This document shows positions 35,267 through 54,114 of a DNA stretch of 64,000 nt, piece after piece (the stretch's first letter is position 1; every line of letters begins with the position of its first letter). This DNA comes from a virus. Location of the stretch: the IMG/VR virus record IMGVR_UViG_3300017527_000885; one strand, given 5' to 3'. The notes below the pieces were generated by a model. It saw only the letters and a program-made list of their open reading frames with translations. It had not been told where the DNA came from and made no database searches. The position numbers were made by a program, and so were the translations under genes.

Positions 35267-35277
35267 TATCTACTCCT

Positions 35278-38366: not shown

Positions 38367-38884
38367 TCCTCATCCAGTATTAGCCCTTGCAACTCCCCCT
38401 CCGTAAAATCGTGCTCGTGATGCGGGTTGGCATGTACCGTGGGAATGACTGGCGCACTAAGAATAATCAGGTTTCTCGTAGCGGCCTTCAACATCCCCAC
38501 AAAATGCTCGGGTGGACAACCCAGATGCTCAATGGTCTCAAACGATACAGCGACGGTGCAGTCAGGAAGCTTGTCAATTTCGCACAAGTCCATTTGTACA
38601 TACTCAATGTTCGTTCTGGGCCATTGCTTATGAGCAATCTTTAGAGCCTCAATGTCAATGTCAATTGCTGTGACCCCACTAGCGATACTGGCAAGAAATG
38701 CGCTGCCATATCCTGTCCCGCAGGCTACATCTAGCACGTTGTCATACTCGTTGACAAAGCCCTTTGCTAGATAATAGCGAAAGGTATGACCCAGCCACTG
38801 GCGGGACTGATATCCATACGCGACCGGGTTTATCCATCCTGGCATATTTCCCCCACAAAGTGGAACCGTGTTTTCTCGTCCCAA
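38303..38884 (-). CDS. class I SAM-dependent methyltransferase
   Basis: NVLDVACGTGYGSAFLA. Confidence 0.6.
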   Translation of the reverse strand: MGRENTVPLCGGNMPGWINPVAYGYQSRQWLGHTFRYYLAKGFVNEYDNVLDVACGTGYGSAFLASIASGVTAIDIDIEALKIAHKQWPRTNIEYVQMDLCEIDKLPDCTVAVSFETIEHLGCPPEHFVGMLKAATRNLIILSAPVIPTVHANPHHEHDFTEGELQGLILDEEWILWEKIRQGPYMIIVAYRK

Positions 38885-39984
38885 GGAAGCCCGCGTTCCT
38901 CCACTAGCTGCTTGAGGCCATTGCGTAATGCCCAGTTGTTACTGCGAATATCTTGAAAATGACCGTGTACCGACCAGGGGTGACCTCCTGCATAGTACAC
39001 AGGTATTCCGGCAGTCTTCGCCTTGCCCTTGTCCCGTGGCTGTAGACTGACCCAGTAACCACGCTCGGCCAGAACATTCACCGCATCCTGACTGATCTGC
39101 CATCCGGGGGGCCTGAACCCCTTGACAAACACACCCATTGCCTCAGCTTTGTCCAAGCATTCGTGCATCTCTGCTTCTGTCCATTCCAGGCACTCGGTGT
39201 TCGGCGTGTGTGTCCAGCCATGTACTGCTATCTCCACCCAGTCCAACTCAGAAAGGGGGTACAGGTGCTTGGCAGTTGATGCTGAAGGCATGGCAAATAG
39301 TGTCACCTTGAGATCGGGGTGCTGTTCTTTAAGAGCAAAAAGTAACTCCTGGTTGGGAGCATCATCACATAGATCGTCCAGGTCAAAGATAGAATCATCC
39401 AAGTACTTGCGGATCGCCCAGCCCCAGTTCTTGCGGTCACCGGGGAACTCCTGAAACTCCACGGGAAAATGGTAGGAATGTATGTAAGTGAGAAACTGCT
39501 TGGCGTTGTAGTCAGAGGTGTAACTGTCGTCTCCCAGGTCATCTATCTTGTCCTCCAGGGAGAACAGGGGTCGCCACTTAACAATAATAACGCGGCGACG
39601 AGCTACGCGGACAGCCTCTGCAATAGACTCGCGGTAGCCAGGGACGTGCTCTAGCACATGCCGTAAGAGCACGGTGTCGAATGAACCATCCGGGAAGTCG
39701 AGTGACCGCGCATCCCCTAAGGTAAAGCACGCCTCTGGGAAAAGCTCCAGGCAGGCATCCACAAAGCTCTGGCAGTAGTCAATACCCTGATACTCCACAT
39801 CCCTGTTGTGACGGACTAGGTTCTCGTACACGCAACCTGGGCCACACCCTATGTCCAACAGGCTTTCCCCATCGTTGATACAGGAAAGGGTCCAGATATG
39901 GCTTAGAGTATCCACACACTCGCCATAGCTCCGAATGTAGGTCTTATGATTGGATATGTTCTGATCCCACCAGGTATTAGTCAC
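38830..39984 (-). CDS. SAM-dependent methyltransferase fused to a putative polysaccharide-deacetylase-like domain
   Basis: N-terminal LLDIGCGPG...FDTVLLRHVLEHV (type-11 methyltransferase). The C-terminal half carries HGWTH and looks like a carbohydrate esterase/deacetylase fold (weak). Confidence 0.5.
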   Translation of the reverse strand: MTNTWWDQNISNHKTYIRSYGECVDTLSHIWTLSCINDGESLLDIGCGPGCVYENLVRHNRDVEYQGIDYCQSFVDACLELFPEACFTLGDARSLDFPDGSFDTVLLRHVLEHVPGYRESIAEAVRVARRRVIIVKWRPLFSLEDKIDDLGDDSYTSDYNAKQFLTYIHSYHFPVEFQEFPGDRKNWGWAIRKYLDDSIFDLDDLCDDAPNQELLFALKEQHPDLKVTLFAMPSASTAKHLYPLSELDWVEIAVHGWTHTPNTECLEWTEAEMHECLDKAEAMGVFVKGFRPPGWQISQDAVNVLAERGYWVSLQPRDKGKAKTAGIPVYYAGGHPWSVHGHFQDIRSNNWALRNGLKQLVEERGLPWDEKTRFHFVGEICQDG

Positions 39985-40759
39985 TGCACGTCTCCCAATT
40001 CACTCCCAGCCTCTCCCAACCAAAGTGGTTCACGGGCGGCCATACATCCCGGTGCCCATGCTCCGAGCCTTCCGGGTAGCCCCATGGGTCTTCCCCGAAC
40101 TCCTCTTTGCCGAAGAGGTGTATGGCGCGGACATCCCTGGCATACCCAACCTTCCAGCCAGCCTTGCGTAGCTTTCCGCAGATGTATCGCTCCTCCCCAT
40201 TCCGAGAGGGTCGTTTAACCTGCTTCCATCCTCCTACGGCGCGAACGGCCTCGGTGCGCATCAGTCGCAGCACTGCTCCCACATGCGCGCGCTCGACAAT
40301 CACAGGAGCACTCTCGAACATCTTGCTGGCGGAATCCCCTATCATCACATGGGGGCGACAGGCTATAGCGGCGTAATTCTCTGTATGGTAATGTCGCAGG
40401 AATACTGTTTCCAGCGCCTCAAGCCAGTCATACGTAAGCTCAAGCACTGTATGGTCTAGCTCGTAGTAACGCATTGTTTGTGGTATCAGGTCGCCATCAG
40501 CAGACACATATAACTGTGTCCCCACATGCTCCAAAAGTACATTGTGGCCCCAGTGAACACCCGTATTCTCATTCAGCAGAATCAACTCATCTATGATCCC
40601 CTCGGCTTTCAGGGCTGTCAGCATCTCTGGCGTTCCGTCTTCCGAACCATTATCACACACAATCAGGCGATGATCCATGAGAGTGCGCTTACGAATCTCT
40701 CGCAGGGAAATCTCATGAATGCGCTTGCGATTGCAGGTTAGAACTGCTATATCTATCAT
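39977..40759 (-). CDS. glycosyltransferase family 2
   Basis: IDIAVLTCNRK...LIVCDNGSEDGT. Confidence 0.65.
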   Translation of the reverse strand: MIDIAVLTCNRKRIHEISLREIRKRTLMDHRLIVCDNGSEDGTPEMLTALKAEGIIDELILLNENTGVHWGHNVLLEHVGTQLYVSADGDLIPQTMRYYELDHTVLELTYDWLEALETVFLRHYHTENYAAIACRPHVMIGDSASKMFESAPVIVERAHVGAVLRLMRTEAVRAVGGWKQVKRPSRNGEERYICGKLRKAGWKVGYARDVRAIHLFGKEEFGEDPWGYPEGSEHGHRDVWPPVNHFGWERLGVNWETCSD

Positions 40760-40760
40760 C

Positions 40761-41519
40761 TTACCTCACATAGTGAGTATATAGGCAGGCATCTATCAAA
40801 TGCACTCGGTAGTGCATTGTCAGCTTCCTAAAGTAGGCCCAGTCGTCACCCCACGGGTTGCCCACCAGTTTCTTGGCAGAGCCATAGCCAGTCTCGTAAC
40901 CCAGCCACTCGTCCACACCATCAGCCACCTTATTGTGATTTGTCCAGGGGGGAAGGGGACCGATCTTCTCGTAGCACTCACGGTGGTGTACGAACATTCC
41001 AGTCCCAATCTTCCCAGAAGGGAAGTGGGAGTGGACACCATTCGTGTCTACCGGAGGCATCCAAGCCTTACGAAGCTTTGTCCAGCGCGGGACTGTATGT
41101 GTGCCGTTTTCTTTGTGAATCCCATGCACAACCGCGCCCAACACCCACAGTCGCACATCTGGCTCTTGCTCAATGTTATGAGCCAAAGTAGCTAGATACA
41201 TTGGGTCATAAGCGTCATCCGAATCTAGCCAACAGAACCATTCGCCTTGTGCTGCCTCCATTCCGGCATTTCTGGCGAAGATGCGACCCTGATGCTCTAT
41301 CCCAAATGGCTTAAATCGCTCATCAAACCGCTCAAACCATAGAAGAAGTTCCGCTGTGTCATCGGTAGACCCATCATCTACCACAACACACTCGAAATTC
41401 CTAAAGGTCTGATCCTGGATGGATTTCAGGCAGCGGTCAAGCTTCCCGCCCTCCATCCGGTTGTAAGTAGGAATGATAATGCTAAACTTGGGTTTCGCGT
41501 TGGACTCGGAAGTCATCAC
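40761..41519 (-). CDS. glycosyltransferase family 2
   Basis: FSIIIPTYNR...CVVVDDGSTDDT. Confidence 0.7.
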   Translation of the reverse strand: MMTSESNAKPKFSIIIPTYNRMEGGKLDRCLKSIQDQTFRNFECVVVDDGSTDDTAELLLWFERFDERFKPFGIEHQGRIFARNAGMEAAQGEWFCWLDSDDAYDPMYLATLAHNIEQEPDVRLWVLGAVVHGIHKENGTHTVPRWTKLRKAWMPPVDTNGVHSHFPSGKIGTGMFVHHRECYEKIGPLPPWTNHNKVADGVDEWLGYETGYGSAKKLVGNPWGDDWAYFRKLTMHYRVHLIDACLYTHYVR

Positions 41520-41676
41520 TTAGCCTCACAGCTTTGTCTCGACACGTAGGGCAAACCAGCACAGTGCGTTTGATAAGGCTGAGTGCATCACCTCGATAGC
41601 GAAGCACCCGCACTGGCACAGCCGTTTCCTTTTCCAGTAGCCTATGACATCCTAAGCATTGTAGAAAGGTGTCCAT
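41482..41676 (-). CDS. small zinc-ribbon protein (possible)
   Basis: CLGC...CPTC. 64 aa. Overlaps neighbours. Confidence 0.25.
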   Translation of the reverse strand: MDTFLQCLGCHRLLEKETAVPVRVLRYRGDALSLIKRTVLVCPTCRDKAVRLSDDFRVQRETQV

Positions 41677-42945
41677 TTATCCCTCCCAGGTATGGAACAG
41701 CGGTTCAATAAACTTTTTGAACACATAGTCTGGATTGCGCTCCTGTCGAATCCTGCGCTGTTGAGCCAGTACTATGTTGTGCTGTAGCTCATAAGCAACC
41801 CGGAGAGCAATCGAGTGGAAATAGTCATCCACATCCTCGTACTCTGTTGTGGTCGTGCCGTCATTGCCAGTGAGTGCGTCAATGTTGGATGAGAACTGGT
41901 AATAGGCTGCATCCGGGCCGTAGATGGAGCGCATTGGTGGGAAGTCCCGATTGAGAATAAGCATTGCCCCACACAGAGCAGCCTCTTGGGCAATAAGACT
42001 GTACGTTTCAGAGCGACTGGGCATTACAAACACGTTGCACAGAAGCATCAGATCGCGGATAACCTCACGGGGCGATCTAGTCTTTAGGCTGTCATCGAAC
42101 TGTGACAGGAATGTCATCTCATTGTCATCTAGGCCCAAGTCTATCGCTAGACTGGCGAGGTGTTCACGGTAGTTGACCTTATCCCCACCAGTGCTATGAA
42201 AATCGGCACAGATAACCCGCACGCTTCGACCAAGCTTCTTGAGCGCAGCCCCTGTGCGGATCACGTACTCAACCTGTTTACCCCTATCTAGCCTCACTGG
42301 ATACAAAAGGATTGCGTCAGCTTCGAGCAACCGCTTCTCATACACCAGTTTCTTTGTGATGTCCTGGAAGCCAAGATAGCCACACACATCGGTGGAGTGG
42401 GGTACGACAGCTACCGTATCTATCTCACAGCGGAAGTTTCTGGCAACGCGGGGAACATCAAAGGCATTAGGGAAAATAATATTGGTGCGCTCTGGGTGAA
42501 TCTGTACAGGGGCCAGTTTGGGATTCACTGCCCACATGGGGCTAGGGGAAGCGGAGTGTATCCAGTGAAGCCAGCCCACATCTGGATGCTCCCTTGCATA
42601 ATCGTGCGCAGCAAAGTTGTGACACATAAGGGCTGCCTGATAGATCAGGTCGTGGGTAATAACAACGTCCAGGCCATTGAGAGCAGCATTAAAGCTCTCG
42701 CGCAACTTGGTTACATTGTCCTCCCAGCCCTCATAGAACTCAATCTTGTTTGACTTGCGCACAGAAGGAATGTGACGTAGCTCAACATCACACCACACAC
42801 GCTCTGGCGAGAATCCCTCTTCCACAATTGCCACAGGCTCATAGCCCGCTCGTAGCAACATCCCCAATTGCTCTTCCGCCACAATCGTTAGAGAATATGT
42901 GGGGTCTGGGGATGCAAAGTCGGTCAGAATGCCGATTCTTTTCAT
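41677..42945 (-). CDS. glycosyltransferase, GT-B fold (GT4-like)
   Basis: VFVMPSRSETYSLIAQEAALCGAMLI. Confidence 0.5.
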   Translation of the reverse strand: MKRIGILTDFASPDPTYSLTIVAEEQLGMLLRAGYEPVAIVEEGFSPERVWCDVELRHIPSVRKSNKIEFYEGWEDNVTKLRESFNAALNGLDVVITHDLIYQAALMCHNFAAHDYAREHPDVGWLHWIHSASPSPMWAVNPKLAPVQIHPERTNIIFPNAFDVPRVARNFRCEIDTVAVVPHSTDVCGYLGFQDITKKLVYEKRLLEADAILLYPVRLDRGKQVEYVIRTGAALKKLGRSVRVICADFHSTGGDKVNYREHLASLAIDLGLDDNEMTFLSQFDDSLKTRSPREVIRDLMLLCNVFVMPSRSETYSLIAQEAALCGAMLILNRDFPPMRSIYGPDAAYYQFSSNIDALTGNDGTTTTEYEDVDDYFHSIALRVAYELQHNIVLAQQRRIRQERNPDYVFKKFIEPLFHTWEG

Positions 42946-42964
42946 CCTGCTCCTTTTTAATTGG

Positions 42965-43333
42965 TTATGATCTGAGAATTGCTATGATTGTCCTTGCCCC
43001 ACCCTGTGTCACAGGCGTGCCTGCGGTACCAGAGCGAATCTTCATATACTGGAACGCGCCTAGCGCATCCATGTCAGATGTAGTCAGGCCAATCGAGCGC
43101 GAAGCTCCTGCGGTCACGTTTAGCTCAGTGCCTGCTCCATCATACACATTGGCAAATGTGCCGCTTGACTTGTCTGCCGCCTGGAATGTCAGGTTGGCTG
43201 AAGTCCACGCTGCTGGCATGATAATCCCGGCCAGTGGCAAGCCATCAGTATTTAGTTCTGCTGACAAGCTGGCACCCTGCGCAATCACCACACTCTTTGC
43301 CTGATAACGTCGTCTAATTCTTTGGTCACTCAT
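42965..43333 (-). CDS. hypothetical protein
   Basis: 122 aa, Ala/Gly/Thr-rich. Confidence 0.35.
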   Translation of the reverse strand: MSDQRIRRRYQAKSVVIAQGASLSAELNTDGLPLAGIIMPAAWTSANLTFQAADKSSGTFANVYDGAGTELNVTAGASRSIGLTTSDMDALGAFQYMKIRSGTAGTPVTQGGARTIIAILRS

Positions 43334-43336
43334 TTA

Positions 43337-43924
43337 CTAGCTCTCCTGGTAGTATTCTAACACGATGGAGATATCCTTTGCGGACCCGGCCTTATTTGTC
43401 ACCCTGGCTAAATAGTCGGTGGACTTGGCAAGTATCCACTCTGCGCCAGAGCGGGCATCTCCCCCAACGGCCTGATTCTTCTGGCCGCCTGGTATAAACC
43501 CAGCAGCCAACTGTGTTCCAGCACTACTAACGGTGGGAGTGTGACGCACATCGGCATCAGATGCATCGGTTCCATCCTCTCGATTCATATTCCTGGGGGT
43601 AATTGCTGTGCCTATGGCAGATGTTGTGGTCCCTGAGTAAAGATAGAAATAAGCATCCCCACCAGCAACCACGGCTATAGCGGAGTGCAGTTCCTTATTT
43701 GCCCCAACCTTAATCAACATATCCGCATTTGCATCATCCCCAATCGTTGTGTACAGATGCGAGGCATGGTACATCCCGGCCTCATGCACCTCTGCATGTG
43801 CAACAAGAATGCCCTCACCTGCACCAACCTTACTGTCAACGCCCTGATTTGTAGTACCGTCCCAACTTATTGTTTTATCCGCCTTGCTTCCCATTACTCT
43901 TTCCTCTGATAGTTCTTCTCCCAA
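43337..43924 (-). CDS. hypothetical protein
   Basis: 195 aa, Ala/Gly-rich. Confidence 0.35.
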   Translation of the reverse strand: MGEELSEERVMGSKADKTISWDGTTNQGVDSKVGAGEGILVAHAEVHEAGMYHASHLYTTIGDDANADMLIKVGANKELHSAIAVVAGGDAYFYLYSGTTTSAIGTAITPRNMNREDGTDASDADVRHTPTVSSAGTQLAAGFIPGGQKNQAVGGDARSGAEWILAKSTDYLARVTNKAGSAKDISIVLEYYQES

Positions 43925-44637
43925 GCTTTGTACTGGCGGAAATGAGCCTGTGTTATCACGGAATTACCTATATGACCACACTGCACATTAAGATCACAAT
44001 ACACTTTGAAACCAGCCTCCCCGGCCTTGCGGCAAAATACTACATCTTCGCCAGTTGCCGGGTTTGGCCCCAAGTAACGAGGCACCTTTATTGCCTCTAC
44101 AACCTTGCGTTCAATAAGAACACAACCAAACCCCATGGAGTCGCATTCCATCAAGCTGTTCTGGAACTGCATCACGGCAGGCTCGAGAACGATGGGAACT
44201 TCATATTCCTCAAACCAATCCAGAACCTCCTGGCTCATGGACATTGTGCCGCCATCCTCGGTGGCCTCATAAACCAGGGCAAACGGTGACTTGCGCCTCC
44301 CGAAATATAGCGAACCGACCATTGGCAACTTGTGCTGGTATAGGGTGTAGATAGCCCCTGGCGGAAGCACCATATCGCTGTCAATAAAACAGAGGTGTGT
44401 AGCGTCCTCAATCTTCAGGAACTCCTTCGTCATCTGTTCCCGACCCTCGTGAATGTAGGTTGGCTGTATCGCCCCCACGGTCCACGATACATTTTGGCGG
44501 GACAGATAAGTAAGAGCAGCATCAAGCGAATCAACATACTCCCACATACCGAATCGCTCTCGTAGTGTCACAACAACGATCTTGTCCTTCCGGGCAGGGT
44601 TTCCCTGTTTCCTCATCTTTTTCTTCCGCTTTTTCAA
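43894..44637 (-). CDS. putative GT-A-fold glycosyltransferase (paralog of 53434-54114)
   Basis: CFIDSDMVLPP...VGSLYFGRR is similar to FIVDCDMLIPQ...ISGLYFSRG in the other gene. Downstream of a TTGCCA-18-TATAAT promoter. The likely start is the internal ATG (MRKQG). Confidence 0.4.
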   Translation of the reverse strand: MKKRKKKMRKQGNPARKDKIVVVTLRERFGMWEYVDSLDAALTYLSRQNVSWTVGAIQPTYIHEGREQMTKEFLKIEDATHLCFIDSDMVLPPGAIYTLYQHKLPMVGSLYFGRRKSPFALVYEATEDGGTMSMSQEVLDWFEEYEVPIVLEPAVMQFQNSLMECDSMGFGCVLIERKVVEAIKVPRYLGPNPATGEDVVFCRKAGEAGFKVYCDLNVQCGHIGNSVITQAHFRQYKAWEKNYQRKE

Positions 44638-44650
44638 TGTACTAGCTCCT

Positions 44651-44685
44651 ATTATAAGGGTTGGGGTGATCCAATGGCAAGGTTA
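44651..44685 (-). promoter_or_regulatory. promoter TAACC-TTGCCA-N18-TATAAT
   Basis: - strand: TAACCTTGCCATTGGATCACCCCAACCCTTATAAT. It is embedded in the 3' end of the upstream epimerase gene. Confidence 0.5.
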
Positions 44686-45632
44686 TCCCGATACCACTTC
44701 ACTGTTCCCATTAAACCCTCTCGGAGGGCAAAGGAGGGACACCAGCCGCCCGTTACCTTCATCATCTTTGTGATGTCGTTCTTCCGGCGCGGGTAGCCCT
44801 CTGGTTTACCGGTATCATAGTAAGCTGTCTTGCCCTCCGCTCCCATCACATCCCAAACTGTATGAAGGAGTCTTCTGATAGAGACATCCTGCCCTGTCCC
44901 GATGTTTACAGGATCGGCTTCTGGATAGTGCTCTAGCACCTTCATTGCCCCAATCGCGGCATCCGTGCTGTAAAGAAACTCACGCCGCTGATTTCCCGAC
45001 CCAAAGACATGCACGGTGTCATTCTCGTCTGTTTTGCGGATGAGCGCGGGGATGACGTGAGATGTCTCGTGGTCAAAGTAGTCAGATGGCCCATAACAGT
45101 TAGCAAAGCGCGTGATCCCCACCTTTATAGGGTGCTTCTCTGCAGCCCACTGAGCATACCGCTCACCCATCCTTTTGGCCCATCCATAGCCAGCGTTGGT
45201 CGGTTCTGGCTCCCCTCTATGTCCCTCTTCCTCTGGGACAGGATACATCATATCATGGGGATACACACACACCGTACTGGCCTGCAAGAATAGTGGCACC
45301 TTGGCTAGTATGGCATAGTGCAAGGGGGTAGTCTGTAGAAGCATATTCTGGCGAAACATCTCGTCATGGTTCTTTCGGTTGAAGTGCATGCCAGTGACCC
45401 TGGCGGCCAGATTAAACACAGCATCCTTTCCTGCATAATCAAAGGGTGTCTTGCAAGCATCCTGGTCAACAACACCACAGGGAAGGTCCTCTAGATTCTC
45501 CCTTCTGCCCCGGCTGAAGTTATCCAGCACGGTAACTTCTGCGTTCTCCTCACACAACAGCCTCACAAGCTGGTGGCCGATCATCCCGGCCCCGCCCGTA
45601 ACTAACACTTTCTTTCCTTCCCAGAAACTCAT
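44652..45632 (-). CDS. NAD-dependent sugar epimerase/dehydratase (SDR family)
   Basis: Rossmann motif VLVTGGAGMIGHQL near the N-terminus. YxxxK (YGWAK) catalytic pair. Confidence 0.75.
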   Translation of the reverse strand: MSFWEGKKVLVTGGAGMIGHQLVRLLCEENAEVTVLDNFSRGRRENLEDLPCGVVDQDACKTPFDYAGKDAVFNLAARVTGMHFNRKNHDEMFRQNMLLQTTPLHYAILAKVPLFLQASTVCVYPHDMMYPVPEEEGHRGEPEPTNAGYGWAKRMGERYAQWAAEKHPIKVGITRFANCYGPSDYFDHETSHVIPALIRKTDENDTVHVFGSGNQRREFLYSTDAAIGAMKVLEHYPEADPVNIGTGQDVSIRRLLHTVWDVMGAEGKTAYYDTGKPEGYPRRKNDITKMMKVTGGWCPSFALREGLMGTVKWYRDNLAIGSPQPL

Positions 45633-45633
45633 A

Positions 45634-46755
45634 TTATCCTCCCGGATCAGCTTGATACAATGCTTGAATGACCATATCCTGTTCTTCTTCTGTAAGCTGC
45701 GGGAACATTGGCAGCGAAAGCACCGTCCCGGCCGCCTCCCATGTCCAGTCTAAACACTGCTCAATTGGCTCTGCCATAGACCAAAACGCTGGGTGCGTTG
45801 CAACTGGCGGATAGTAATGCACGCCACAATGAATGCCCCTTTCCCTCAATATGCGCCTGACATTATCCCGGTCGCTGGTAGCAATCACGTACATATTGTA
45901 GGAGTGCAGGCCTCCTGGCGGGTCACTCGGTAACCCGTAGGAGGTATCCAGTAGATAATTTCGATATGTCCTGGCAATGATTCGGCGGCGGTGTAGGTCA
46001 TACTTGATATTACTTAGCTTAACTCGCAGAATGGCAGCCTGGAGGGAATCCAGGCGTGAGTTGATTCCCCTATCATGACAAATCTGCTGGTAGGAGCGTG
46101 ACCCCAGCGCTTCCCATCCATATTGCCGAAGCTCTATGGCCCTCTCAGCAAGCAAGAGATCGCTGGTCACTACAGCACCACCATCTCCCAAGGCACCCAG
46201 GTTCTTGGTGGGGTAGAAAGAGAATGCCGCCATGTCTCCCCAGGACCCTGCGGGTGACCCGAACCAAGCGGAGCCTACGGCCTGTGCGCAGTCCTCGATA
46301 ATCTTAATGCCATGCTTTGTGCCCACCCGGATCATCCGGGACATATCAACCGGACATCCATACAAATGAACTGGGATGATAGCCCTGGTCTGGGGCGTGA
46401 TTGCTTCTTCTATTCGGTCTATGTCAATGAGACAGGTCGCAGTGATGTCGACAAACACTGGCGTTGCCCCCACCTGCTTGACAGCCGAGACTGTAGGCGG
46501 AGCAGTATGGCCCGGAACAATTACCTCATCCCCTGGCCCTACGTCACATGCCATGAGGCAAATGGCAAGTGCGTCAGTCCCAGAATTAACGCCAATAGCA
46601 TAGCCCGCTGAGCAAAAATCTGCGAATTCCTCTTCGAATCTCTCAACAGACTCGCCCAGTATGTACTGCCCAGCCTCAAGCTCTGCAAGAATTGCATCGC
46701 CTATTGCATACCTATGTTCCAGGTAGCTTCGTTTCGGATCGGCGTAAGCCAACAT
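45634..46755 (-). CDS. DegT/DnrJ/EryC1/StrS-family PLP-dependent sugar aminotransferase
   Basis: GVNSGTDAL, DEVIVPGHT, AIIPVHLYG, IIEDCAQAVGS, FSFYPTKNLGALGDGGAVV. Confidence 0.85.
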   Translation of the reverse strand: MLAYADPKRSYLEHRYAIGDAILAELEAGQYILGESVERFEEEFADFCSAGYAIGVNSGTDALAICLMACDVGPGDEVIVPGHTAPPTVSAVKQVGATPVFVDITATCLIDIDRIEEAITPQTRAIIPVHLYGCPVDMSRMIRVGTKHGIKIIEDCAQAVGSAWFGSPAGSWGDMAAFSFYPTKNLGALGDGGAVVTSDLLLAERAIELRQYGWEALGSRSYQQICHDRGINSRLDSLQAAILRVKLSNIKYDLHRRRIIARTYRNYLLDTSYGLPSDPPGGLHSYNMYVIATSDRDNVRRILRERGIHCGVHYYPPVATHPAFWSMAEPIEQCLDWTWEAAGTVLSLPMFPQLTEEEQDMVIQALYQADPGG

Positions 46756-47227
46756 CTCCCCACCCCCAGTCAGAAGTCATCTCTAAACGATGCTCGTCCT
46801 CTGGATCATAAACTTTGTCACACAAAACAACTAGCGTTGCAGACCCGAATCCATCCGGTGTTCTCACGGAGTGTAGCTCGCCGGGGAGCACAGTGATGGC
46901 CCATGGTAACTGTGCATCGAGCCTGTACCGGATCAGTGCGCCCAATCCCTTGTTGGGATATGTGGCGACCAATATCTCAGAGACACCCTTCACCGGGATA
47001 AAGGTCTCTGTCTTGTGCTTATGAAAGTGCCACACCTTGGCATCCCTCGCCTGTCTGACCTTGGTGGTGACACAGTACGCCATAGCAACATCGTGTTCGG
47101 CCGTTCGGAATAGCTCAAACAGGTTACCCCTCTTGTCCGCGTGTAAGGTTATCTCCCGCTCCCGCTGCATGTATCTTCTCCCCAATTGCTTGTAGCAATT
47201 CTGCATATGGCGTATACAAATACTCAT
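46712..47227 (-). CDS. cupin-fold sugar 3,4-ketoisomerase (FdtA/QdtA/WxcM-C-like)
   Basis: RGNLFELFR...VRQARDAKVWHFHKH matches the RG-L-E...RG-H-H pattern of FdtA-type isomerases. Confidence 0.5.
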   Translation of the reverse strand: MSICIRHMQNCYKQLGRRYMQREREITLHADKRGNLFELFRTAEHDVAMAYCVTTKVRQARDAKVWHFHKHKTETFIPVKGVSEILVATYPNKGLGALIRYRLDAQLPWAITVLPGELHSVRTPDGFGSATLVVLCDKVYDPEDEHRLEMTSDWGWGDVGLRRSETKLPGT

Positions 47228-48008
47228 GCACTATCGGATTAAGCTGATATGTGGCCCACTGGCTTTGTAAGAATCTGTGAAAATGGTAGATCAACACCTG
47301 GTCCGTGTTCACAAACATCTTGCTGCCTGCAACAGTATAAATATACTGCTCCTGGTTCCAGGGGGCCAGATTCACCCCCAGATGCTGGATAATGTGCGCG
47401 CCATAATCTTGGGGCCAGGTATCCAGATACATTTGGTCGCCAAACTTGCCATCCTCGTTTCGGTAATAGCACCACTCAATACACTGGTCACTCCAAGTCT
47501 TTGCACACTCGCGGCCTACCGGGTCATTCTTAAAGTAAACTACCCCAACATTGAAGGTCCCATTGATCGCCTTATGCTTCAGCGCTGGAGGGAACCTGTG
47601 CGGAGTGATTGCCACACTCGCGCCTCCAATCTCTTGGTAGAGCGGGGCGAGGTCCCCGAACAGAAAACAGTCAGCGTCAACATAGGTGATATGAGGCGCG
47701 CCCAGCCCGGATAGACAGACATTAGACCACACTGAAGCTAGGGTCCACATGAACTCGGTGTGGGTCCTGCCCTCGTGGGCTTCCTTTAGTCCCTCTACAT
47801 TCAGATGAAACAACGGCATAACAATTACATTCTCGGCCGGATTGTTCTGGAACCACGCCGCAGTCAGGTCGTCACAAGCCAGTACATACAGCCGATATGA
47901 TTTGAGATGGTGTTGGAGCGAGGAGATGAATGCAACTCCTCTGTCTAGATAGTGTGAATCAAACAGCGTTGCTAAATGTATCATCTCGTCCATTGGCATC
48001 TCCTGCAT
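47124..48008 (-). CDS. putative GT-A-fold glycosyltransferase (DxD)
   Basis: YRLYVLACDD...ITYVDADCFLF, a nucleotide-sugar transferase DxD motif. Confidence 0.4.
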   Translation of the reverse strand: MQEMPMDEMIHLATLFDSHYLDRGVAFISSLQHHLKSYRLYVLACDDLTAAWFQNNPAENVIVMPLFHLNVEGLKEAHEGRTHTEFMWTLASVWSNVCLSGLGAPHITYVDADCFLFGDLAPLYQEIGGASVAITPHRFPPALKHKAINGTFNVGVVYFKNDPVGRECAKTWSDQCIEWCYYRNEDGKFGDQMYLDTWPQDYGAHIIQHLGVNLAPWNQEQYIYTVAGSKMFVNTDQVLIYHFHRFLQSQWATYQLNPIVHEYLYTPYAELLQAIGEKIHAAGAGDNLTRGQEG

Positions 48009-48685
48009 ATGTCCAGTATGCCTCTATGTCCTTGGCTAAGAGCCTGGTAAATTCCATTGGCTTTATCACCCAATAGCACCTCGGCCAATCTGTCGGCAGG
48101 CCCTAGTGTATGCTTGCGCGCGTGGTCCATACAACATAGACCTACCTGCCGATCACAAGTAATGATGACTTGGTTCAGCGGGGCAAGACAGGGAAGGTCC
48201 AGGTCCACATATAGTCCATCGTAGATACCCAGGCGCGAGTCTAGCCCCACGTTCATTGTAGAGACATCTCCATTTCTCACCCACGGCACTATGCGATCTC
48301 TCACCTCTGGCTTATAGGGCGTAACAAGTACCTTGGCCCCGTAGTCCTGCAATTCTCTCAGCATTACCTCGGTTAGCCGCCCTCCATTAGTTACAACATA
48401 CGGGTCAGCGAAAGGACATGCCTCAATCGCAAAATTTAACAGGTAGAATAGCCGGGGGTCTTCCAAAGGCTCATTGTACAGATGGAAAGCCAGTTCGCCT
48501 GAATACTCATACCGACCAAGAGTCTCGATAACAGTCTCGGCAGTTGAAACTGGCAGAGTAATTGGTTCCTTTACATAGTGTGCCGGACAGCGAGGGTGCA
48601 AAGGAGCATAACTGCACTGATTGGATAGCTCAATAGCAACACTACGAGTGTGTTCGAACGGGTTTGTGCTGGTAATATGATCCAT
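47981..48685 (-). CDS. hypothetical protein (Cys-containing, possible Fe-S)
   Basis: 234 aa. ELSNQCSYAPLHPRCP is radical-SAM-like but not canonical. Confidence 0.3.
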   Translation of the reverse strand: MDHITSTNPFEHTRSVAIELSNQCSYAPLHPRCPAHYVKEPITLPVSTAETVIETLGRYEYSGELAFHLYNEPLEDPRLFYLLNFAIEACPFADPYVVTNGGRLTEVMLRELQDYGAKVLVTPYKPEVRDRIVPWVRNGDVSTMNVGLDSRLGIYDGLYVDLDLPCLAPLNQVIITCDRQVGLCCMDHARKHTLGPADRLAEVLLGDKANGIYQALSQGHRGILDICRRCQWTR

Positions 48686-49274
48686 TTTCGCTTATGGGCA
48701 TAACTACAATGCCATACTCCTCTTTAATGTACTCAATAGCCACGCTGACAGGTGCCACTCCGTCGACACTCCACTTTACGTCGTCAAAGAAAATAATACC
48801 GTTATCTTTGATGCAATGAAGGGCACTCCTAAAGTCCTCGATGACAGCCACCGTGCTGTGGTCTGCATCAATATAGATAAAGTCGAACAGCATGCCATCG
48901 CGTGCGAACAACGCCAGGGCCTCGGTCGTCAGCATTCTGTACGGAACGATCTTGTCCTGAAAGCCCTTGATGTTGTGCAAGAAAATCTCGTACAATTCAT
49001 CTGTTCTGTACTTGTCTTTCAGACCCTCGAAGCGCTCTTTTGAGGGATTGCTGTCCTCCCACTTGCCCACATCCCAGGTGTCCACGCAGGATACCTGACT
49101 GCCCTTCCCGGTCAGAATGTTTTCCACAAGCCAGATCGCGCTCCGTCCCTTCCAAGAACCAAGCTCTAAGAACTCCACGCCAGGTTCCCCCACGAACCTG
49201 TCCAGAAGAAATGTGAACGGTCGCATATGGTTAAACCAATTCTCTTCCGGCAAACCTAAATCAAGCTCGGTCAT
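48642..49274 (-). CDS. class I SAM-dependent methyltransferase (TylF/O-MT-like)
   Basis: EFLELGSWKGRSAIWL...DADH pattern. Confidence 0.45.
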   Translation of the reverse strand: MTELDLGLPEENWFNHMRPFTFLLDRFVGEPGVEFLELGSWKGRSAIWLVENILTGKGSQVSCVDTWDVGKWEDSNPSKERFEGLKDKYRTDELYEIFLHNIKGFQDKIVPYRMLTTEALALFARDGMLFDFIYIDADHSTVAVIEDFRSALHCIKDNGIIFFDDVKWSVDGVAPVSVAIEYIKEEYGIVVMPISENGSYYQHKPVRTHS

Positions 49275-49905
49275 CTTCCCTCCATATCACGTATGTGCCA
49301 ATGTCGCCCCTGCCCCACCTGACTCGTAGGCAGTGTGTGAATCCGAACTCCGCAAAGAGATTTACAAACGTTCCTTGATTGTATGTGACAGAATAGGTTA
49401 GCTTCTTTTCATAACTAGGGCGCAATTCCACATATGTGGGACATGCAGAAGCTTTCACTCGATGCCAGATAATAGTTCCCTCGGCCCGCGATGCAATATG
49501 GTTCATATATGCCATATGCTCATTTGTAACGTCAGCCACAGAAGAGGCTAGCACTGTATCAAATCCAGTGAAATCAAAGTCAAATAGATCGGTGGCGAGA
49601 AATGTGCCATTATTTCCGAACTCTGCCTGCGCAAGCTCTATCATTGATTCCGAGAAGTCAATGCCAGTGTACTCCACTTCCGGGTAGAACCTCCGCAATA
49701 GTTCTGAGTAATGGCCTACGCCACAGCCCACATCCAGTAGCTTGCGAGGCATTAAGTCTGTCTCGTGCATCTCTTGCATGGTCTCAAGAAAGAACCTGAA
49801 TGGGGCCACATCCAGCGGGTTCACAAGTTCCTTTCTCACGAGGCCTAGTTGCGCCTGTGCAACCTCGGGAGCTTGCCAGGCTTGGACTATGTGGTCATGG
49901 CGCAT
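49261..49905 (-). CDS. class I SAM-dependent methyltransferase
   Basis: LLDVGCGVGHYSELL...FDTVLAS. Confidence 0.65.
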   Translation of the reverse strand: MRHDHIVQAWQAPEVAQAQLGLVRKELVNPLDVAPFRFFLETMQEMHETDLMPRKLLDVGCGVGHYSELLRRFYPEVEYTGIDFSESMIELAQAEFGNNGTFLATDLFDFDFTGFDTVLASSVADVTNEHMAYMNHIASRAEGTIIWHRVKASACPTYVELRPSYEKKLTYSVTYNQGTFVNLFAEFGFTHCLRVRWGRGDIGTYVIWREDDRA

Positions 49906-50495
49906 TTTGTAGCCTTTATCACTATCGCGGGATAGTCATGGAAGTTGCGCTGCGGCTCAATGTCAGTGAAGCCAGCCTCCTCAAGCATTCTAGTCAGCTT
50001 GGCTAGCGAGTATCCATCATAGTGATGAGCGTAATCATCCTTGTGGCTCCCGTAGATTTGACGCAAGCACCAATCCTTTTCTTCCTCGGTTTCTGCCATC
50101 AAGTACATTCGTGCAACTTCTGGAAAATCGGGTACGGAGAGCAAGAGGTGCCCACCATGCTTTAGGGTGAGATACCAGGTTTCCAGTGCTATCTTCGCAT
50201 CCTCTGGCACAAAGTGCTCAAGCGCCTGGATTGCCACTATCTCTGTTGCCTCCTGAGAACTGTAGCCAAATGACATAAAAGTGTCAAGATGAACAATGTC
50301 ATCACGGAAATCTACGACCACCTCTCTTGTAGGAGCAGCCTTGATTGCCTCCTTCACTGGTAACTTGTAGTAATTGTCGAGCGTTGTACAGTTTACTTCG
50401 ACAAGATCGGGGCGGTCGACCGCCAAATGTCCAATAATGTCTACATTGCAGTACCCATCCAGATAAACTGTTCCACAACCTAAGTGTAATTTCAT
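49887..50495 (-). CDS. class I SAM-dependent methyltransferase
   Basis: MKLHLGCG at the N-terminus. ...LEHF. Confidence 0.5.
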   Translation of the reverse strand: MKLHLGCGTVYLDGYCNVDIIGHLAVDRPDLVEVNCTTLDNYYKLPVKEAIKAAPTREVVVDFRDDIVHLDTFMSFGYSSQEATEIVAIQALEHFVPEDAKIALETWYLTLKHGGHLLLSVPDFPEVARMYLMAETEEEKDWCLRQIYGSHKDDYAHHYDGYSLAKLTRMLEEAGFTDIEPQRNFHDYPAIVIKATKCAMTT

Positions 50496-51355
50496 GTGTG
50501 TTTCTCCAACTCGCGGTCCAGTCGCTCCTGTAGCGAGTCTATCGCTAGACTGATGACCTCGGGATGCTCCCCTTTGAATGGCTCGGTCCTGCTATGCATT
50601 CTGTTCACAGGCCATAGCTCGTGGACTCCATCGTACTGTTCCTCGACTTCTTCCCTCTTTCCCAGAACCCAGGGAAGGTAAACCCGGTTAAAGTAGTCCG
50701 GGATAGTCCGCTGTGGCGATCTCTGGAAGTAGTATTCAGTCTTTGTCTTGACCTGAGATGGGAAAACATAACTGTAATGATAGATTCTCAGGTCATACTG
50801 AAGCAGGGTCTGACCGCCCAGGGTGCTTGGTTTATCGCCGTCTGGCAGGAGAATTGTTGGAGGGCGATGTGTCAACCACTTGGCCCCTGGGTAATACCGT
50901 TGCACCCTGCGCCAAATGGCCTTTTCCTCATGTCCGGTCATGTAGTAATCAAAGCCCCCATAGAATGAGTAGGGCTTAAACTCTACGCTGTCATATCCAT
51001 ATTCATCTATCTGTTGAACGATAAATTCTAGGTCATCCGGCTTATACACTTCGTCAGAGTCGACCATCCACAGGTGCGTGGTGTCATCAGGGACCAGATG
51101 CATAGCAGCATTCATCATATAGTCTTTCTCGATGAATGCACCGCTCACTACCCCTAGTATCCCATGCCCATAGTTCCGGTATTCCTCTAGAATTTCCAGG
51201 GTTCTGTCAGTGCTACCAGTAAAACCGCGACTGCGCCAGTAGTCCACTGGCCCCTCAGTAACGACCAGGGGGCCAAAGGGAAGAATGGACTGCAAGACCT
51301 GCTCGAGAACATGATCCCCGTTGAACACTATCATTTGGAAAGTTATCTTGGGCAT
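50492..51355 (-). CDS. putative glycosyltransferase (GT-A-like)
   Basis: ITFQMIVFNGDHVLEQ...VDSDEVY. Weak. Confidence 0.3.
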   Translation of the reverse strand: MPKITFQMIVFNGDHVLEQVLQSILPFGPLVVTEGPVDYWRSRGFTGSTDRTLEILEEYRNYGHGILGVVSGAFIEKDYMMNAAMHLVPDDTTHLWMVDSDEVYKPDDLEFIVQQIDEYGYDSVEFKPYSFYGGFDYYMTGHEEKAIWRRVQRYYPGAKWLTHRPPTILLPDGDKPSTLGGQTLLQYDLRIYHYSYVFPSQVKTKTEYYFQRSPQRTIPDYFNRVYLPWVLGKREEVEEQYDGVHELWPVNRMHSRTEPFKGEHPEVISLAIDSLQERLDRELEKHT

Positions 51356-51359
51356 AGTC

Positions 51360-52115
51360 TTATGAGATGAACGGCAGGTCTCCGCTCTCGTACTGTTTCT
51401 CTGTCAGTAGTGGGTACTCGGGGCAAGGGAACCAGTCACGCCCCCAGCGCGCGTATAGCTGCTCGTTATCTTTGTTTATCTGGTACCTTGCACGAAGAGT
51501 ATCATGGTGGCGGAGATGGTCCACCACACAATTATTACTTCCCACCACCCTGAAGCCTCGGGCCTGGATTGAAAGGCTCAACTCGGGGTCACCAGAGTAG
51601 GTGTGCGCGCGTGTGCCCCACCATCCCACGTGGTTCCCCAGCCATCTCCTGGTCATGCCAAAGTTTGCATAGGGACGGTGGGAGACCAGTTGCAACTTAT
51701 ATTCTTGTCCCGGATCACGGAACGGGAAGGCTAACTGCCCGACGTTCCAGGAATCCTCATTTTCAAGAAACTCCCAGGCATCGTAGATACAGTCACCCAC
51801 AACCTCGCAATCATCATTGAGGTGGACCACGTATCGGCCCCTAGCGTGTGCGAATCCAGTGTTGAATGCGCGAATGGCCCCAACCAATTCCTTTTGCGCG
51901 ATCAGAACCACATCGGGCTGTGCAAGACACCAGCGCTGCGTGCCATCATCTGAGCCTCCGTCGACAACAACGATCTCATAGCTGAGCCATTTGGTAGAAC
52001 GGCGGGCACTCTTGATACACTTCTTTAGAAGCCGAAGCCTATTCCACGTGGCTACAACAACTGAAACCTCAAGGGTGCCAAACAATCTTCGCCAACGCGC
52101 CTTTATCCCGAGCAT
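51360..52115 (-). CDS. glycosyltransferase family 2
   Basis: VSVVVATWNR...IVVVDGGSDDGT. Confidence 0.7.
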   Translation of the reverse strand: MLGIKARWRRLFGTLEVSVVVATWNRLRLLKKCIKSARRSTKWLSYEIVVVDGGSDDGTQRWCLAQPDVVLIAQKELVGAIRAFNTGFAHARGRYVVHLNDDCEVVGDCIYDAWEFLENEDSWNVGQLAFPFRDPGQEYKLQLVSHRPYANFGMTRRWLGNHVGWWGTRAHTYSGDPELSLSIQARGFRVVGSNNCVVDHLRHHDTLRARYQINKDNEQLYARWGRDWFPCPEYPLLTEKQYESGDLPFIS

Positions 52116-52732
52116 AGTTCCCTAGCCCTTTCCAGGTCCTTCCTGGTGTTCACATTTATCCATCCGGTTTTGATAATGTCTACAGGCATCCTTGCCTGCC
52201 ACAAGTACTCAACCCGGTCCTCGCAACGGTCCCGGCAATCATCTATTGTGTCCTGGTTGGGCTTGAGAGCATAGAGCACTATCCACTCCCAAGGATCAAG
52301 GATAGCCCACTTGAGGCCACGTGGAACGCGGTCGATATGACCAGGAATCACGGTGTCGGCCGCAATTATCAGGGACTGGTCAGCCTCCCGTGAAGCCTCT
52401 AGTCCGGCTGCAACCGAGTGGCCGATGGATAGTCCTGGGTCCATCTTTACCACCTGCCCGAATTCTGCGGCCTCTGCTATATGGGAACCGTCCCAAGTTG
52501 CCCCGACCACAGTTACAATGGGCATATTAAGCTGGCGTGCAAGACGGCCGAGGATTGTTTGTCCGTTTAGCCGCTGCAAGCATTTAGGTGCCTCATCCTC
52601 GCCAAAGCGGGTTTGCAGGCCCGCTGCCAGGACAACGGCACTAGAAGATATACCGATCCTCATATCTATAACCCCACTTTTCGAAAATCTCGGCGTCCTG
52701 AAGGTATACACGATCAACCATCCAGGGTGCAT
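52103..52732 (-). CDS. sugar-phosphate nucleotidyltransferase (IspD/MobA-like)
   Basis: AVVLAAGLQTRFGEDEAPKCLQRLNGQTIL. The likely start is the internal MRIGISS. Confidence 0.55.
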   Translation of the reverse strand: MHPGWLIVYTFRTPRFSKSGVIDMRIGISSSAVVLAAGLQTRFGEDEAPKCLQRLNGQTILGRLARQLNMPIVTVVGATWDGSHIAEAAEFGQVVKMDPGLSIGHSVAAGLEASREADQSLIIAADTVIPGHIDRVPRGLKWAILDPWEWIVLYALKPNQDTIDDCRDRCEDRVEYLWQARMPVDIIKTGWINVNTRKDLERARELCSG

Positions 52733-53228
52733 AAAGTTCGTCTCGCATATACTGCTCGATACTCTCTATCCAGGGCCGGGTACCCCACTGCCTGTATGCA
52801 TCTGGGAACCAGCTAAGCACCTCCACCTTAGTCACCAGGCCCGGTGCTATCTCCGGCAAGATGTTTGACAGGTCCTCTGCCAGGGATTCAAACTGCCCTA
52901 CATGCTCTATGCCGGGCTTTGTAAAATTATCCCAGTAATTTGCCATACACACACCCTTGCCATTGTAACCAACCAGCCAGCTACCAAAGTCCCCGCGCCA
53001 TCGCTGTAGTTTTAATTCATGAATCCAGAACGAGATATACCAGTCAAATGGATTGCGGACAAAGGAAAAAGCAGGAGCATCAGAGTACTTGCGCGCATCT
53101 GTCAGCCAGCGGTGTGCCTGACTGTCAATCCAGGCGACCTTTCCCGCCATATGCGTGTGAAGGGCATAGCGAATCATGCCCTCCCCAGTATCGCCCATTC
53201 CTATGTGGATGAACTCTTTACATATCAT
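52641..53228 (-). CDS. putative sulfotransferase-like protein
   Basis: P-loop-like IGMGDTGEG and FSFVRNPFDWYISFW resemble the PAPS-binding motifs of sulfotransferases. Weak. Confidence 0.3.
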   Translation of the reverse strand: MICKEFIHIGMGDTGEGMIRYALHTHMAGKVAWIDSQAHRWLTDARKYSDAPAFSFVRNPFDWYISFWIHELKLQRWRGDFGSWLVGYNGKGVCMANYWDNFTKPGIEHVGQFESLAEDLSNILPEIAPGLVTKVEVLSWFPDAYRQWGTRPWIESIEQYMRDELYAPWMVDRVYLQDAEIFEKWGYRYEDRYIF

Positions 53229-53467
53229 TGGTCGCTTTCAGCATTAGGGTCTGTGGCCGGATTAACGTCCTCTGCTAGCTGCTTGCCAAGCAGAAGAATC
53301 TGATCGAGGGCTGCAACAGCGCCCTTGTGCTGGTTCAATTCACCTATCAGGTCCTCTATCTGATCCTCTATCTGGTCTTTCCTTGCCAGGTGTTGCTGTC
53401 TCATTTGGACCAAGTGATTTCCGGTTAACTGTGTCATTTTTCTCTCTCCCTTAGATAATTTGTCCAT
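53225..53467 (-). CDS. small coiled-coil protein
   Basis: 80-aa ORF. Confidence 0.3.
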   Translation of the reverse strand: MDKLSKGERKMTQLTGNHLVQMRQQHLARKDQIEDQIEDLIGELNQHKGAVAALDQILLLGKQLAEDVNPATDPNAESDQ

Positions 53468-54114
53468 TCTGCTATTGATTGTTCTTTTATAGCTTCCCAG
53501 TCCTTTTCCTCAACTGCTCTTGTCGTCAGATGCCCGCACCTCACAGAAAAGTCACACCAAATTTTCTCGTTGGTTTCATCTCTTATCTTGAGACAAAGCC
53601 TTACATCGCTGCCAACAAGAGGCTCGTCCATAAACGGCCCTAGTTGAGAGTAGGGTGGCTCAAGTTGCTCCAAAACGCTTTTGTGAATCAGCAGGCAGCC
53701 ATGTCCGGTTGCCCCCACAGGATATACCCCGCCGTCTGGATAGTCAAACCAGCGAGACATTGGAAATCGTCCCACTGGCTCTTCTTCCCGGAACACTATA
53801 GGCCAGGTCCGGTCTCCACGAGAGAAGTACAATCCACTAATGACCTTTTTGCCACTATTCAGTAGCTTTGGAAGAGCATCCTGAGGTATAAGCATATCAC
53901 AGTCAACAATAAAAAGCCATTCATACTCGGGCATCTCAAGGAACTGCCTAATCAAGACCTCTCGAGCATACTCCGAGCGCATTCCAATCTTAGTGAGAAG
54001 CATGCTGATGTGTGGCAGACCCATAAGGGGAACCAGCGTCTCGACCACAAACTTTGCGTGGATCAATTCCGGGAAAATAACAAGTAGTGCTACCGAAGGT
54101 ACTGTCATAGTCAC
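53434..54114 (-). CDS. putative GT-A-fold glycosyltransferase (paralog of 43894-44637)
   Basis: FIVDCDMLIPQDALPKLLNSGKKVISGLYFSR. Confidence 0.4.
   Translation of the reverse strand: MTMTVPSVALLVIFPELIHAKFVVETLVPLMGLPHISMLLTKIGMRSEYAREVLIRQFLEMPEYEWLFIVDCDMLIPQDALPKLLNSGKKVISGLYFSRGDRTWPIVFREEEPVGRFPMSRWFDYPDGGVYPVGATGHGCLLIHKSVLEQLEPPYSQLGPFMDEPLVGSDVRLCLKIRDETNEKIWCDFSVRCGHLTTRAVEEKDWEAIKEQSIAEWTNYLREREK

Follow-up and report, generated by a model that had tools for sequence, protein, structure and literature searches.

A phage glycosylation island with sugar-nucleotide genes that probably make an amino-deoxy sugar and a deoxy sugar from a host intermediate

Results

Three tightly packed sugar-nucleotide genes lie in a tailed-phage genome

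We analysed a 64-kb window of the 68.9-kb contig of viral record IMGVR_UViG_3300017527_000885 (IMG/VR) and focus on three consecutive open reading frames (ORFs) on the minus strand at 44652-47227. An initial annotation had read these genes as a pathway to an activated amino-deoxyhexose that the phage encodes in full. The limits of the three ORFs are exactly as first noted and their families were confirmed. From the sequence features described below, the trio probably makes an amino-deoxy sugar and a deoxy sugar from a host intermediate. The genes are as follows:

44652-45632, minus strand: extended short-chain dehydrogenase/reductase (SDR), 326 amino acids (aa); PF01370 Epimerase, 1.2e-48
45634-46755, minus strand: DegT sugar aminotransferase, 373 aa; PF01041 DegT_DnrJ_EryC1, 7.5e-101, 338 bits
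46712-47170, minus strand: cupin, 152 aa; the longest ORF, to 47227, has 171 aa

The packing of the trio is operon-like: the start of the DegT gene overlaps the stop of the cupin gene (44 nt in common), and a single base separates DegT from the SDR. The true start of the cupin is probably M20 at 47170, which gives the 152-aa protein, because it agrees with how the gene is called in the database (P0001) and with where homologous proteins begin. No second DegT, SDR, cupin or nucleotidyltransferase paralogue was found in the window. The surrounding genome is that of a tailed phage, with a major capsid protein (phrog_1005, 6.4e-80) and portal, protease, scaffold-like and tape-measure-like proteins, and the window also holds the replication and modification genes DnaB, SSB and Dam.

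The SDR resembles GDP-fucose synthases and the window encodes no 4,6-dehydratase

The SDR had initially been taken for an RmlB-type dehydratase, an assignment that its active site and its profile scores contradict. In 4,6-dehydratases the catalytic Thr is followed by acid/base residues, Asp-Glu in RmlB and Glu in GMD. The phage SDR reads S119-T120-V-C122 where dehydratases have T-D-E, and it scores 98 bits against the dTDP-glucose 4,6-dehydratase model TIGR01181 (cut-off 365) and 25.7 bits against the CDP-glucose dehydratase model (cut-off 278). Its best NCBIfam model is NF047922, GDP-L-fucose synthase (181.7 bits, under the equivalog cut-off of 500), and its best structural matches are likewise GDP-fucose synthases (PDB 7ll6, 1.6e-40). 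The aligned motifs of the SDR and GDP-fucose synthase are STVCVYP/SSCIYP, YGWAK/YAIAK, YxxxK and SHV(I/L)PAL. Across 24 homologues D37, S119, C122, Y149, K153 and H192 are invariant and T120 is at least 90 % conserved. Judged by these residues, the SDR is not a 4,6-dehydratase, and its T120/C122/Y149/K153/H192 set places it with the GDP-L-fucose-synthase-like enzymes of the 3,5-epimerase/4-reductase type.

None of the Pfam scans of the 64-kb window detected a 4,6-dehydratase. Therefore, the keto sugar must come from the host, unless the other ~5 kb of the contig encodes such an enzyme, and the proposal that the phage supplies its own activated donor finds no basis in the window.

The cupin carries a complete metal motif with a His pair shared by CapF and FdtA

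A word-indexed homologue search with the cupin returned the query alone, and HMMER run over all 1.84 billion representatives yielded 55 relatives. The cupin matches PF14667 (36.9 bits, cut-off 28.7), as do all members of an alignment of 34 homologues, 30 of which also match FdtA and 17 RmlC. In this alignment H48, H50, G62 and H100 are invariant. The metal motifs of the phage cupin are complete, namely HxH(x)4E(x)6G (H48, H50, E55, G62) and PxGxxHxxxN (P96, H100), and the family has an N-terminal DxRGxLxE motif. Compared with PDB, the family profile ranked the C-terminal domain of CapF highest (5e-21, 78 bits), followed by FdtA (9.5e-14, 54.5 bits), QdtA (7e-13) and RmlC (7.5e-12). The family profile was required for this comparison; the TYK2-kinase matches from a single-sequence PDB search were spurious and were discarded. 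A Foldseek comparison of the AlphaFold (AF2) model (mean predicted local distance difference test score, pLDDT, 89.9) with PDB likewise placed CapF at ranks 1-5, with a root-mean-square deviation of 2.1 Å over 130 columns for 3ST7, and FdtD at rank 21.

C3-epimerases and 3,4-ketoisomerases have a common first step, in which the C3 proton is taken off a 4-keto sugar to give an enediolate. The initial annotation had called the cupin FdtA-like and had proposed the loss of the FdtA catalytic His pair as the observation that would argue against it. The pair is present: H48 and H50 align with FdtA His49 and His51 (the HAH motif), and also with His288 and His290 of CapF. In CapF these two residues belong to the metal site of a cupin domain that acts as a Zn-dependent epimerase on the CapE product (PMC5393024). 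The FdtA His pair is therefore not diagnostic, since the same pair forms the zinc site of CapF, and on its own it should not be used to annotate ketoisomerases. From its family and its metal site, the cupin is predicted to be an enediol-forming enzyme acting on a nucleoside diphosphate (NDP)-4-keto sugar, that is, a 3,4-ketoisomerase or a 3-epimerase; the family could do either.

The aminotransferase ranks with C3 enzymes

The DegT protein keeps the lysine that binds pyridoxal phosphate (PLP), Lys184, in SFYPTKNLG. In ColD-type dehydratases a His stands in place of this lysine, so the phage protein must be a genuine transaminase rather than an enzyme of that kind. A colitose-type (ColD/ColC) pathway was accordingly rejected, with a ColD match of only 1e-22. 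Ordered by their match to the DegT protein, the best PDB entries are 7b0d, DesV, QdtB, 7n63, WbpE, a WlaRG-type enzyme and NtdA, all above the C4 enzymes. More specifically, the C3 enzymes DesV, QdtB, WbpE, Campylobacter 5U1Z and NtdA score 263, 243, 215, 200 and 178 bits, respectively, and the C4 enzymes ArnB/perosamine synthase about 165 bits (maximum 167), DesI 129, WecE 124 and PseC/PglE about 83. Among the ten best PDB matches, every one of known function is a C3 enzyme (178-263 bits). The C3 or C4 class of the compared enzymes is one that we take to be established in the literature. This ranking is suggestive of amination at C3 rather than C4.

The cupin and the aminotransferase belong to a cassette that recurs in other phage contigs

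Close relatives of the cupin (44-46 % identity) were found in metagenome and viral contigs (L047, L048, L051 and L015). These contigs carry a compact cassette on one strand, made up of a nucleotidyltransferase, a DegT aminotransferase, a GT8-like glycosyltransferase, a methyltransferase and the cupin, with no SDR. Where long enough, the contigs continue into ORFs that, judged by eye, are first terminase-like and then portal-like. The cupin and DegT recur together with the other three genes in L047, L048 and L051. In these same three contigs the methyltransferase homologue lies between the GT8-like gene and the cupin, and in L048 and L051 the nucleotidyltransferase homologue is directly upstream of DegT. 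A GT8-like homologue is adjacent to the cupin in L015, L047, L048, L051 and L037. All five cassette genes are present in the window in rearranged order, with 36 % identity for DegT and the following values for the three other members:

47124-48008, minus strand: GT8-like glycosyltransferase, 294 aa; DxD motif 'DAD'; no Pfam match of its own; 37 % identity
49261-49905, minus strand: class I S-adenosylmethionine (SAM) methyltransferase; Methyltransf_25/31/12/11; 29 % identity
52103-52732, minus strand: MobA/GlmU-N-like nucleotidyltransferase; NTP_transf_3, 1.2e-12; probable start M24 at 52663; 31 % identity

The nucleotidyltransferase and the methyltransferases that the initial annotation had noted near the trio are thus real, the latter amounting to six SAM genes. 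Its suggestion that they serve the same sugar holds in so far as the nucleotidyltransferase and one methyltransferase accompany DegT and the cupin in contigs of other phages. This methyltransferase was tried as a sugar N-methyltransferase of the TylM1/DesVI type and rejected, as it gave generic class I matches alone. The nucleotidyltransferase matched GlmU alone in PDB, weakly (1e-4), with no significant RmlA-type match. The GT8-like protein has 303 homologues, several of which carry PF01501 or are named as glycosyltransferases, and is a candidate transferase for the amino sugar. Genetically, the cupin is linked to the putative C3-aminotransferase both by the overlap of the two genes here and by the conservation of the pair in the three contigs, and it is the sole candidate in the surrounding gene island for producing a 3-keto sugar.

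The SDR keeps other company. Its closest relatives (57-62 % identity) come from contigs of other phages that have SPP1-type portal genes, one of them with a weak terminase match, in clusters that contain GT2 and Methyltransf_24/RMNT_CmcI genes and lack both DegT and the cupin. The three other phage clusters that carry this SDR have no dedicated dehydratase; a further SDR, RmlD-like, is present in one of the three. A pattern search of IMG/VR did not find close SDR relatives. A conserved pair of the SDR and a downstream GT2 gene across phages was considered and rejected, as the downstream GT2 genes are not homologous to 43894-44637.

Distant relatives of the cupin (25-30 % identity) were found in 25 loci of bacterial and archaeal metagenome-assembled genomes (MAGs; L022-L046). 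An SDR comes directly next in 13 of these 25 loci, starting 20-60 nt past the cupin, and DegT is never next. This cupin-then-SDR arrangement resembles a 'split CapF' layout, with a domain order that is the reverse of CapF. In the window, DegT stands between the cupin and the SDR.

The trio is a juxtaposition of two modules and not one conserved operon, because the SDR and the cupin-DegT pair occur apart elsewhere. From the amino-deoxyhexose pathway first proposed we thus retain phage-encoded tailoring of NDP-sugars, with an amino-deoxyhexose as the likeliest product, and give up the idea of three genes forming a single conserved unit.

A further cluster, at 6461-11008 of a contig that IMG/VR labels as a giant-virus MAG (L059), combines DegT, GT8-like, methyltransferase and GT2 homologues, the GT2 protein sharing 38.5 % identity over 288 aa with the island gene at 50492-51355. 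Gene exchange between giant viruses and phages may lie behind this cluster, or the contig may have been binned wrongly.

The trio lies in a lineage-specific glycosylation island

The three genes are part of an island of about 24 kb (29990-54114) that is lineage-specific and separates the capsid gene from those that follow it in relatives. The capsid gene (55122-56093, minus strand), whose product is 36 % identical to annotated capsid proteins, marks the upstream edge. Besides the genes listed above, the island contains:

35612-54114, minus strand: enzyme part of the island, with at least ten glycosyltransferases and six methyltransferases
35612, 36421, 39977, 40761, 41677, 43894, 47124, 50492, 51360 and 53434, minus strand: ten glycosyltransferase-like genes
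37308, 38303, 38830, 48642, 49261 and 49887: six SAM methyltransferases
38830-39984, minus strand: fusion of an N-terminal SAM methyltransferase and a C-terminal polysaccharide deacetylase/DUF2334-like domain
42965-43333 and 43337-43924, minus strand: small conserved phage ORFs
47981-48685, minus strand: SPASM-like protein, 234 aa; weak SPASM/twitch-type Fe-S match, 0.0011, below cut-off
52641-53228, minus strand: sulfotransferase-like protein, 195 aa; faint match, 0.0043; RNPxD-like motif
33615-34748: LamG-like protein
29990-33271, minus strand: Ser/Thr-tract protein, 1093 aa, at the end of the island

For comparison, related phages were gathered via the capsid protein (identity up to 66 %). 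In one relative (L001) about 1.1 kb separates the capsid gene and the homologue of 28610-29623; the same interval takes up about 25 kb in the window. Four others (L007, L003, L005 and L002) carry at this site a small core whose only glycosyltransferases are two GT2-like genes, homologous to 53434-54114 and 43894-44637, and L007 and L003 also have the small ORF 42965-43333. The remaining enzymes of the island, with the trio, the LamG-like protein and the Ser/Thr-tract protein, are additions in the window. Set against L001, L003 and L007, the island resembles a pair of inserted blocks (about 44652-53228 and about 29990-42945) placed around conserved core genes by the capsid gene, namely the two GT2-like genes and the small ORFs. 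Three more glycosyltransferase genes lie downstream, at 24020, 25847 and 26547; all three have homologues in L001, and 24020 also in L007. Amid these minus-strand genes an HNH endonuclease gene (25101-25850) occupies the plus strand.

No convincing transmembrane segment and no multi-pass membrane protein was found among the island proteins, nor did Pfam scans of them detect a flippase, polymerase, ligase or polyprenyl-phosphate transferase. Soluble proteins together with the lack of flippase, polymerase and polyprenyl-phosphate transferase argue for direct glycosylation of proteins in the cytoplasm over lipid-linked assembly of a polysaccharide. The sulfotransferase-like gene suggests that the island glycan may be sulfated. 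The SPASM-like protein, placed between the GT8-like gene and a methyltransferase, has an N-terminal Cys pattern (C-x8-C) that is unusual compared with the canonical radical-SAM CxxxCxxC.

Elsewhere in the window, a radical-SAM protein close to the SSB and DnaB genes and a Dam-type DNA adenine methyltransferase are encoded on the plus strand (2697-3443, 19402-19977), and DNA modification from these genes is possible. Two proteins with an M23 peptidase domain are encoded on the minus strand, one of 1135 aa (20603-24010) that is probably virion-internal or tape-measure-like and one of 213 aa (57984-58625) that is endolysin-like and whose gene is flanked by those for portal and protease.

The island ends at a protein with a long Ser/Thr tract

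The 1093-aa protein consists of an N-terminal domain of about 450 residues, a tract at residues 455-1026 that is almost wholly Ser/Thr, and short C-terminal repeats. The tract spans about 570 residues, with runs of 62, 284 and 212. The DNA repeats beneath it are degenerate (60-85 % match), which suggests selection on composition; neither an assembly artefact nor slippage in the recent past would fit as well. A GC-skew peak (+0.42, 30-32 kb) is accounted for by the tract, as is a spurious ORF of 665 aa read from the other strand (30000-31997, plus strand). No comparable Ser/Thr ORF was found in the 67 other loci scanned (68 sequences with the window), and our literature search found no phage precedent for such a tract. 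By its composition and its place in the island, this tract is a likely, candidate acceptor for O-glycosylation.

Discussion

A host-made intermediate would feed two branches

Our best explanation, held with moderate confidence, is that the three proteins are tailoring enzymes which branch from one host-made NDP-4-keto-6-deoxyhexose and serve a glycan on a phage protein. The host would supply the intermediate to the phage enzymes. In one branch, the metal-binding cupin would abstract the proton at C3, giving a 3,4-enediolate, and would release the 3-keto isomer, which we favour, or the C3 epimer. DegT would then transaminate the keto group to give an NDP-3-amino-3,6-dideoxyhexose or, less probably, a 4-amino-4,6-dideoxyhexose. 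Amination at C3 is favoured because of the clade in which DegT falls and because nothing but the cupin could provide a 3-keto sugar. The cassette methyltransferase may methylate the amino sugar, and the GT8-like protein may transfer it. In the other branch, the SDR would act as a 3,5-epimerase/4-reductase to yield a 6-deoxy-L-hexose. Both sugars would pass to the soluble glycosyltransferases of the island, which would build a methylated glycan directly on a phage protein, most likely on the Ser/Thr tract of the 1093-aa protein. The protein families, the catalytic residues, the gene linkage, the lack of a dehydratase and the restriction of the island to this lineage are observed in the sequences; the substrates, the site of amination and the acceptor are inferred from them.

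We tentatively extend this to a mucin-like phage glycoprotein, a virion-associated fibre of about 570 Ser/Thr residues that would be O-glycosylated in the cytoplasm by at least ten glycosyltransferases with a methylated glycan containing the amino-deoxyhexose. As part of the same tentative picture, the sugar would come from a portable five-gene cassette that moves between phages, in which a CapF-like metallo-cupin was recruited as ketoisomerase for a C3-aminotransferase.

Several points weigh against the proposed two-branch scheme. No gene in the 64-kb window, which leaves out about 5 kb of the contig, would provide the keto sugar, and an N-acyltransferase is lacking as well. The cupin scores 20.5 bits against FdtA (PF05523), under the Pfam cut-off of 23, and by both profile and fold its closer relative is not FdtA but the CapF C3-epimerase domain, which is where its FdtA-like label falls short. 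An Asp closing the second Rossmann strand is typical of NAD-binding extended SDRs; Asp37 of the SDR (VLDNFSRG) therefore suggests NAD, and reduction of a free 4-keto sugar with NADPH may not be the activity of the enzyme. Similarity ranks are suggestive of C3 over C4 specificity for DegT and are no proof of it. Finally, that any phage protein is glycosylated is itself a prediction.

Alternative readings of the trio

The CapF likeness of the cupin allows a different division of labour, in which a Zn-dependent C3-epimerase (the cupin) and its C4-reductase (the SDR) together give a 6-deoxy-L-hexose or its N-acetyl form, with DegT as a C4 side branch on the keto sugar or the epimer. The CapF cupin is indeed the closest characterised relative by profile and fold, all four metal ligands are kept, and distant bacterial and archaeal relatives have an SDR directly after the cupin in 13 of 25 loci. 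In contrast, the close cupin relatives (44-46 %) sit with DegT and no SDR, no cupin accompanies the close SDR relatives (57-62 %), CapF is missing from the 58 solved chains that match the SDR at E ≤ 1e-10, and DegT ranks with C3 and not C4 enzymes; we therefore consider this division somewhat unlikely. Alternatively, the SDR could work apart from the amino-sugar branch as an NAD+-dependent, redox-neutral enzyme of the GDP-mannose-3,5-epimerase type and take an ordinary NDP-hexose of the host as its substrate, for which no dehydratase would be needed. The invariant, typically NAD-binding Asp37, the match of GDP-mannose 3,5-epimerases to the SDR at 1e-26 and the three other phage SDR clusters without a dedicated dehydratase are consistent with such an activity, but the SDR is more like GDP-fucose synthases (143 versus 97 bits) and has His192 where the GDP-mannose epimerase has Lys, so that we regard it as unlikely.

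The sugars might also be destined for something other than the virion, such as remodelling of the host envelope (serotype conversion or exclusion) or glycosylation of phage DNA, and phage glycosyltransferases are known in both roles (PMC12619734; 10.1101/2023.12.21.572611). Against this improbable use stand an island that lacks a flippase, polymerase, ligase, polyprenyl-phosphate transferase and multi-pass membrane protein, the failure to find genes for base hydroxymethylation, and the position of the island by the capsid gene with a Ser/Thr-only protein at its end. The self-contained dTDP-Fuc3N/Qui3N pathway, with the SDR as RmlB-type dehydratase, the cupin as FdtA/QdtA, DegT as FdtB/QdtB and a donor supplied by the phage, appears very improbable. 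DegT does rank with QdtB and DesV, the cupin has the His pair and an FdtA profile match (9.5e-14), and a nucleotidyltransferase is close by. However, the SDR has T-V-C instead of T-D-E, reaches 98 bits of the 365 required and best matches GDP-fucose synthases, the nucleotidyltransferase is MobA/GlmU-like with no significant RmlA-type match, and the conserved cassette comes without the SDR.

Comparison with known systems

Among 50,697 deposited phage records neither the amino-sugar cassette nor its cupin had a match, and a megablast search of the island against deposited phages returned none either. SDR relatives in deposited phages are limited to GDP-fucose-synthase genes of cyanophages, at 35 % identity or less. 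DegT genes occur in 16 of the records, several of which are not phages; an Aphanizomenon 'phage' with DegT was discarded as a comparison, being plasmid-like with ParA/ParB and a replication protein. Virus-encoded sugar tailoring and glycosylation of phage virions are already known, and what is new here is the portable cupin-DegT cassette, the host-dependent precursor, the large island and the mucin-like candidate acceptor.

The nearest enzymatic parallels are each partial. CapF (Cap5F) of Staphylococcus aureus (3ST7, 2ZKL, 4YRD) has a cupin that is, like the phage one, of the NDP-4-keto-6-deoxy sugar type with HxH...E...H kept, but there it is fused to an SDR, whereas the phage cupin stands alone, is about 20 % identical and has DegT and not a reductase as its conserved partner. 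In the FdtA/QdtA and FdtB/QdtB systems a cupin gene likewise lies beside a DegT gene, and the phage DegT matches QdtB at 4.7e-71; unlike those systems, the phage lacks RmlA/RmlB as well as an FdtC/QdtC-type N-acetyltransferase. With GDP-L-fucose synthase (GFS/GMER/WcaG) the SDR shares the Ser/Thr-Cys-Tyr-Lys-His set (S107, C109, Y136, K140 and H179 in E. coli), and it differs by a longer, NAD-type LDNFSRG segment and the lack of a partner GDP-mannose dehydratase.

At the level of the whole pathway, the closest likeness is to Mimivirus, in which R141, L780 and L136 make UDP-L-rhamnose and UDP-viosamine from one 4-keto-6-deoxy intermediate for the methylated glycans of fibrils on the virion surface, L780 being the epimerase/reductase that leads to L-rhamnose and L136 the aminotransferase that leads to viosamine (PMC9614988). 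The proposed phage scheme would similarly have an epimerase/reductase and a DegT-type aminotransferase branch from one intermediate. Mimivirus has its own dehydratase and a C4 aminotransferase, whereas the phage adds a cupin step and has no dehydratase in the window. A few mycobacteriophages have glycosyltransferases of their own and glycans on virion proteins, at the C-termini of capsid and tail-tube proteins (Freeman et al. 2023, as summarised in PMC12619734). They differ from the present phage, which has at least ten glycosyltransferase genes, sugar-nucleotide tailoring, six methyltransferases and a candidate acceptor of about 570 Ser/Thr residues. Virus-encoded sugar-nucleotide pathways for virion glycans are established in giant viruses, and virion glycosylation in a few mycobacteriophages with small sets of transferases; the island described here would extend both to a tailed phage of ordinary size (~69 kb) with an unusually large toolkit. 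Its Ser/Thr tract offers a concrete, testable candidate acceptor and, if the glycan shields or targets the virion, the system bears on phage-host recognition and on the immune recognition of phages.

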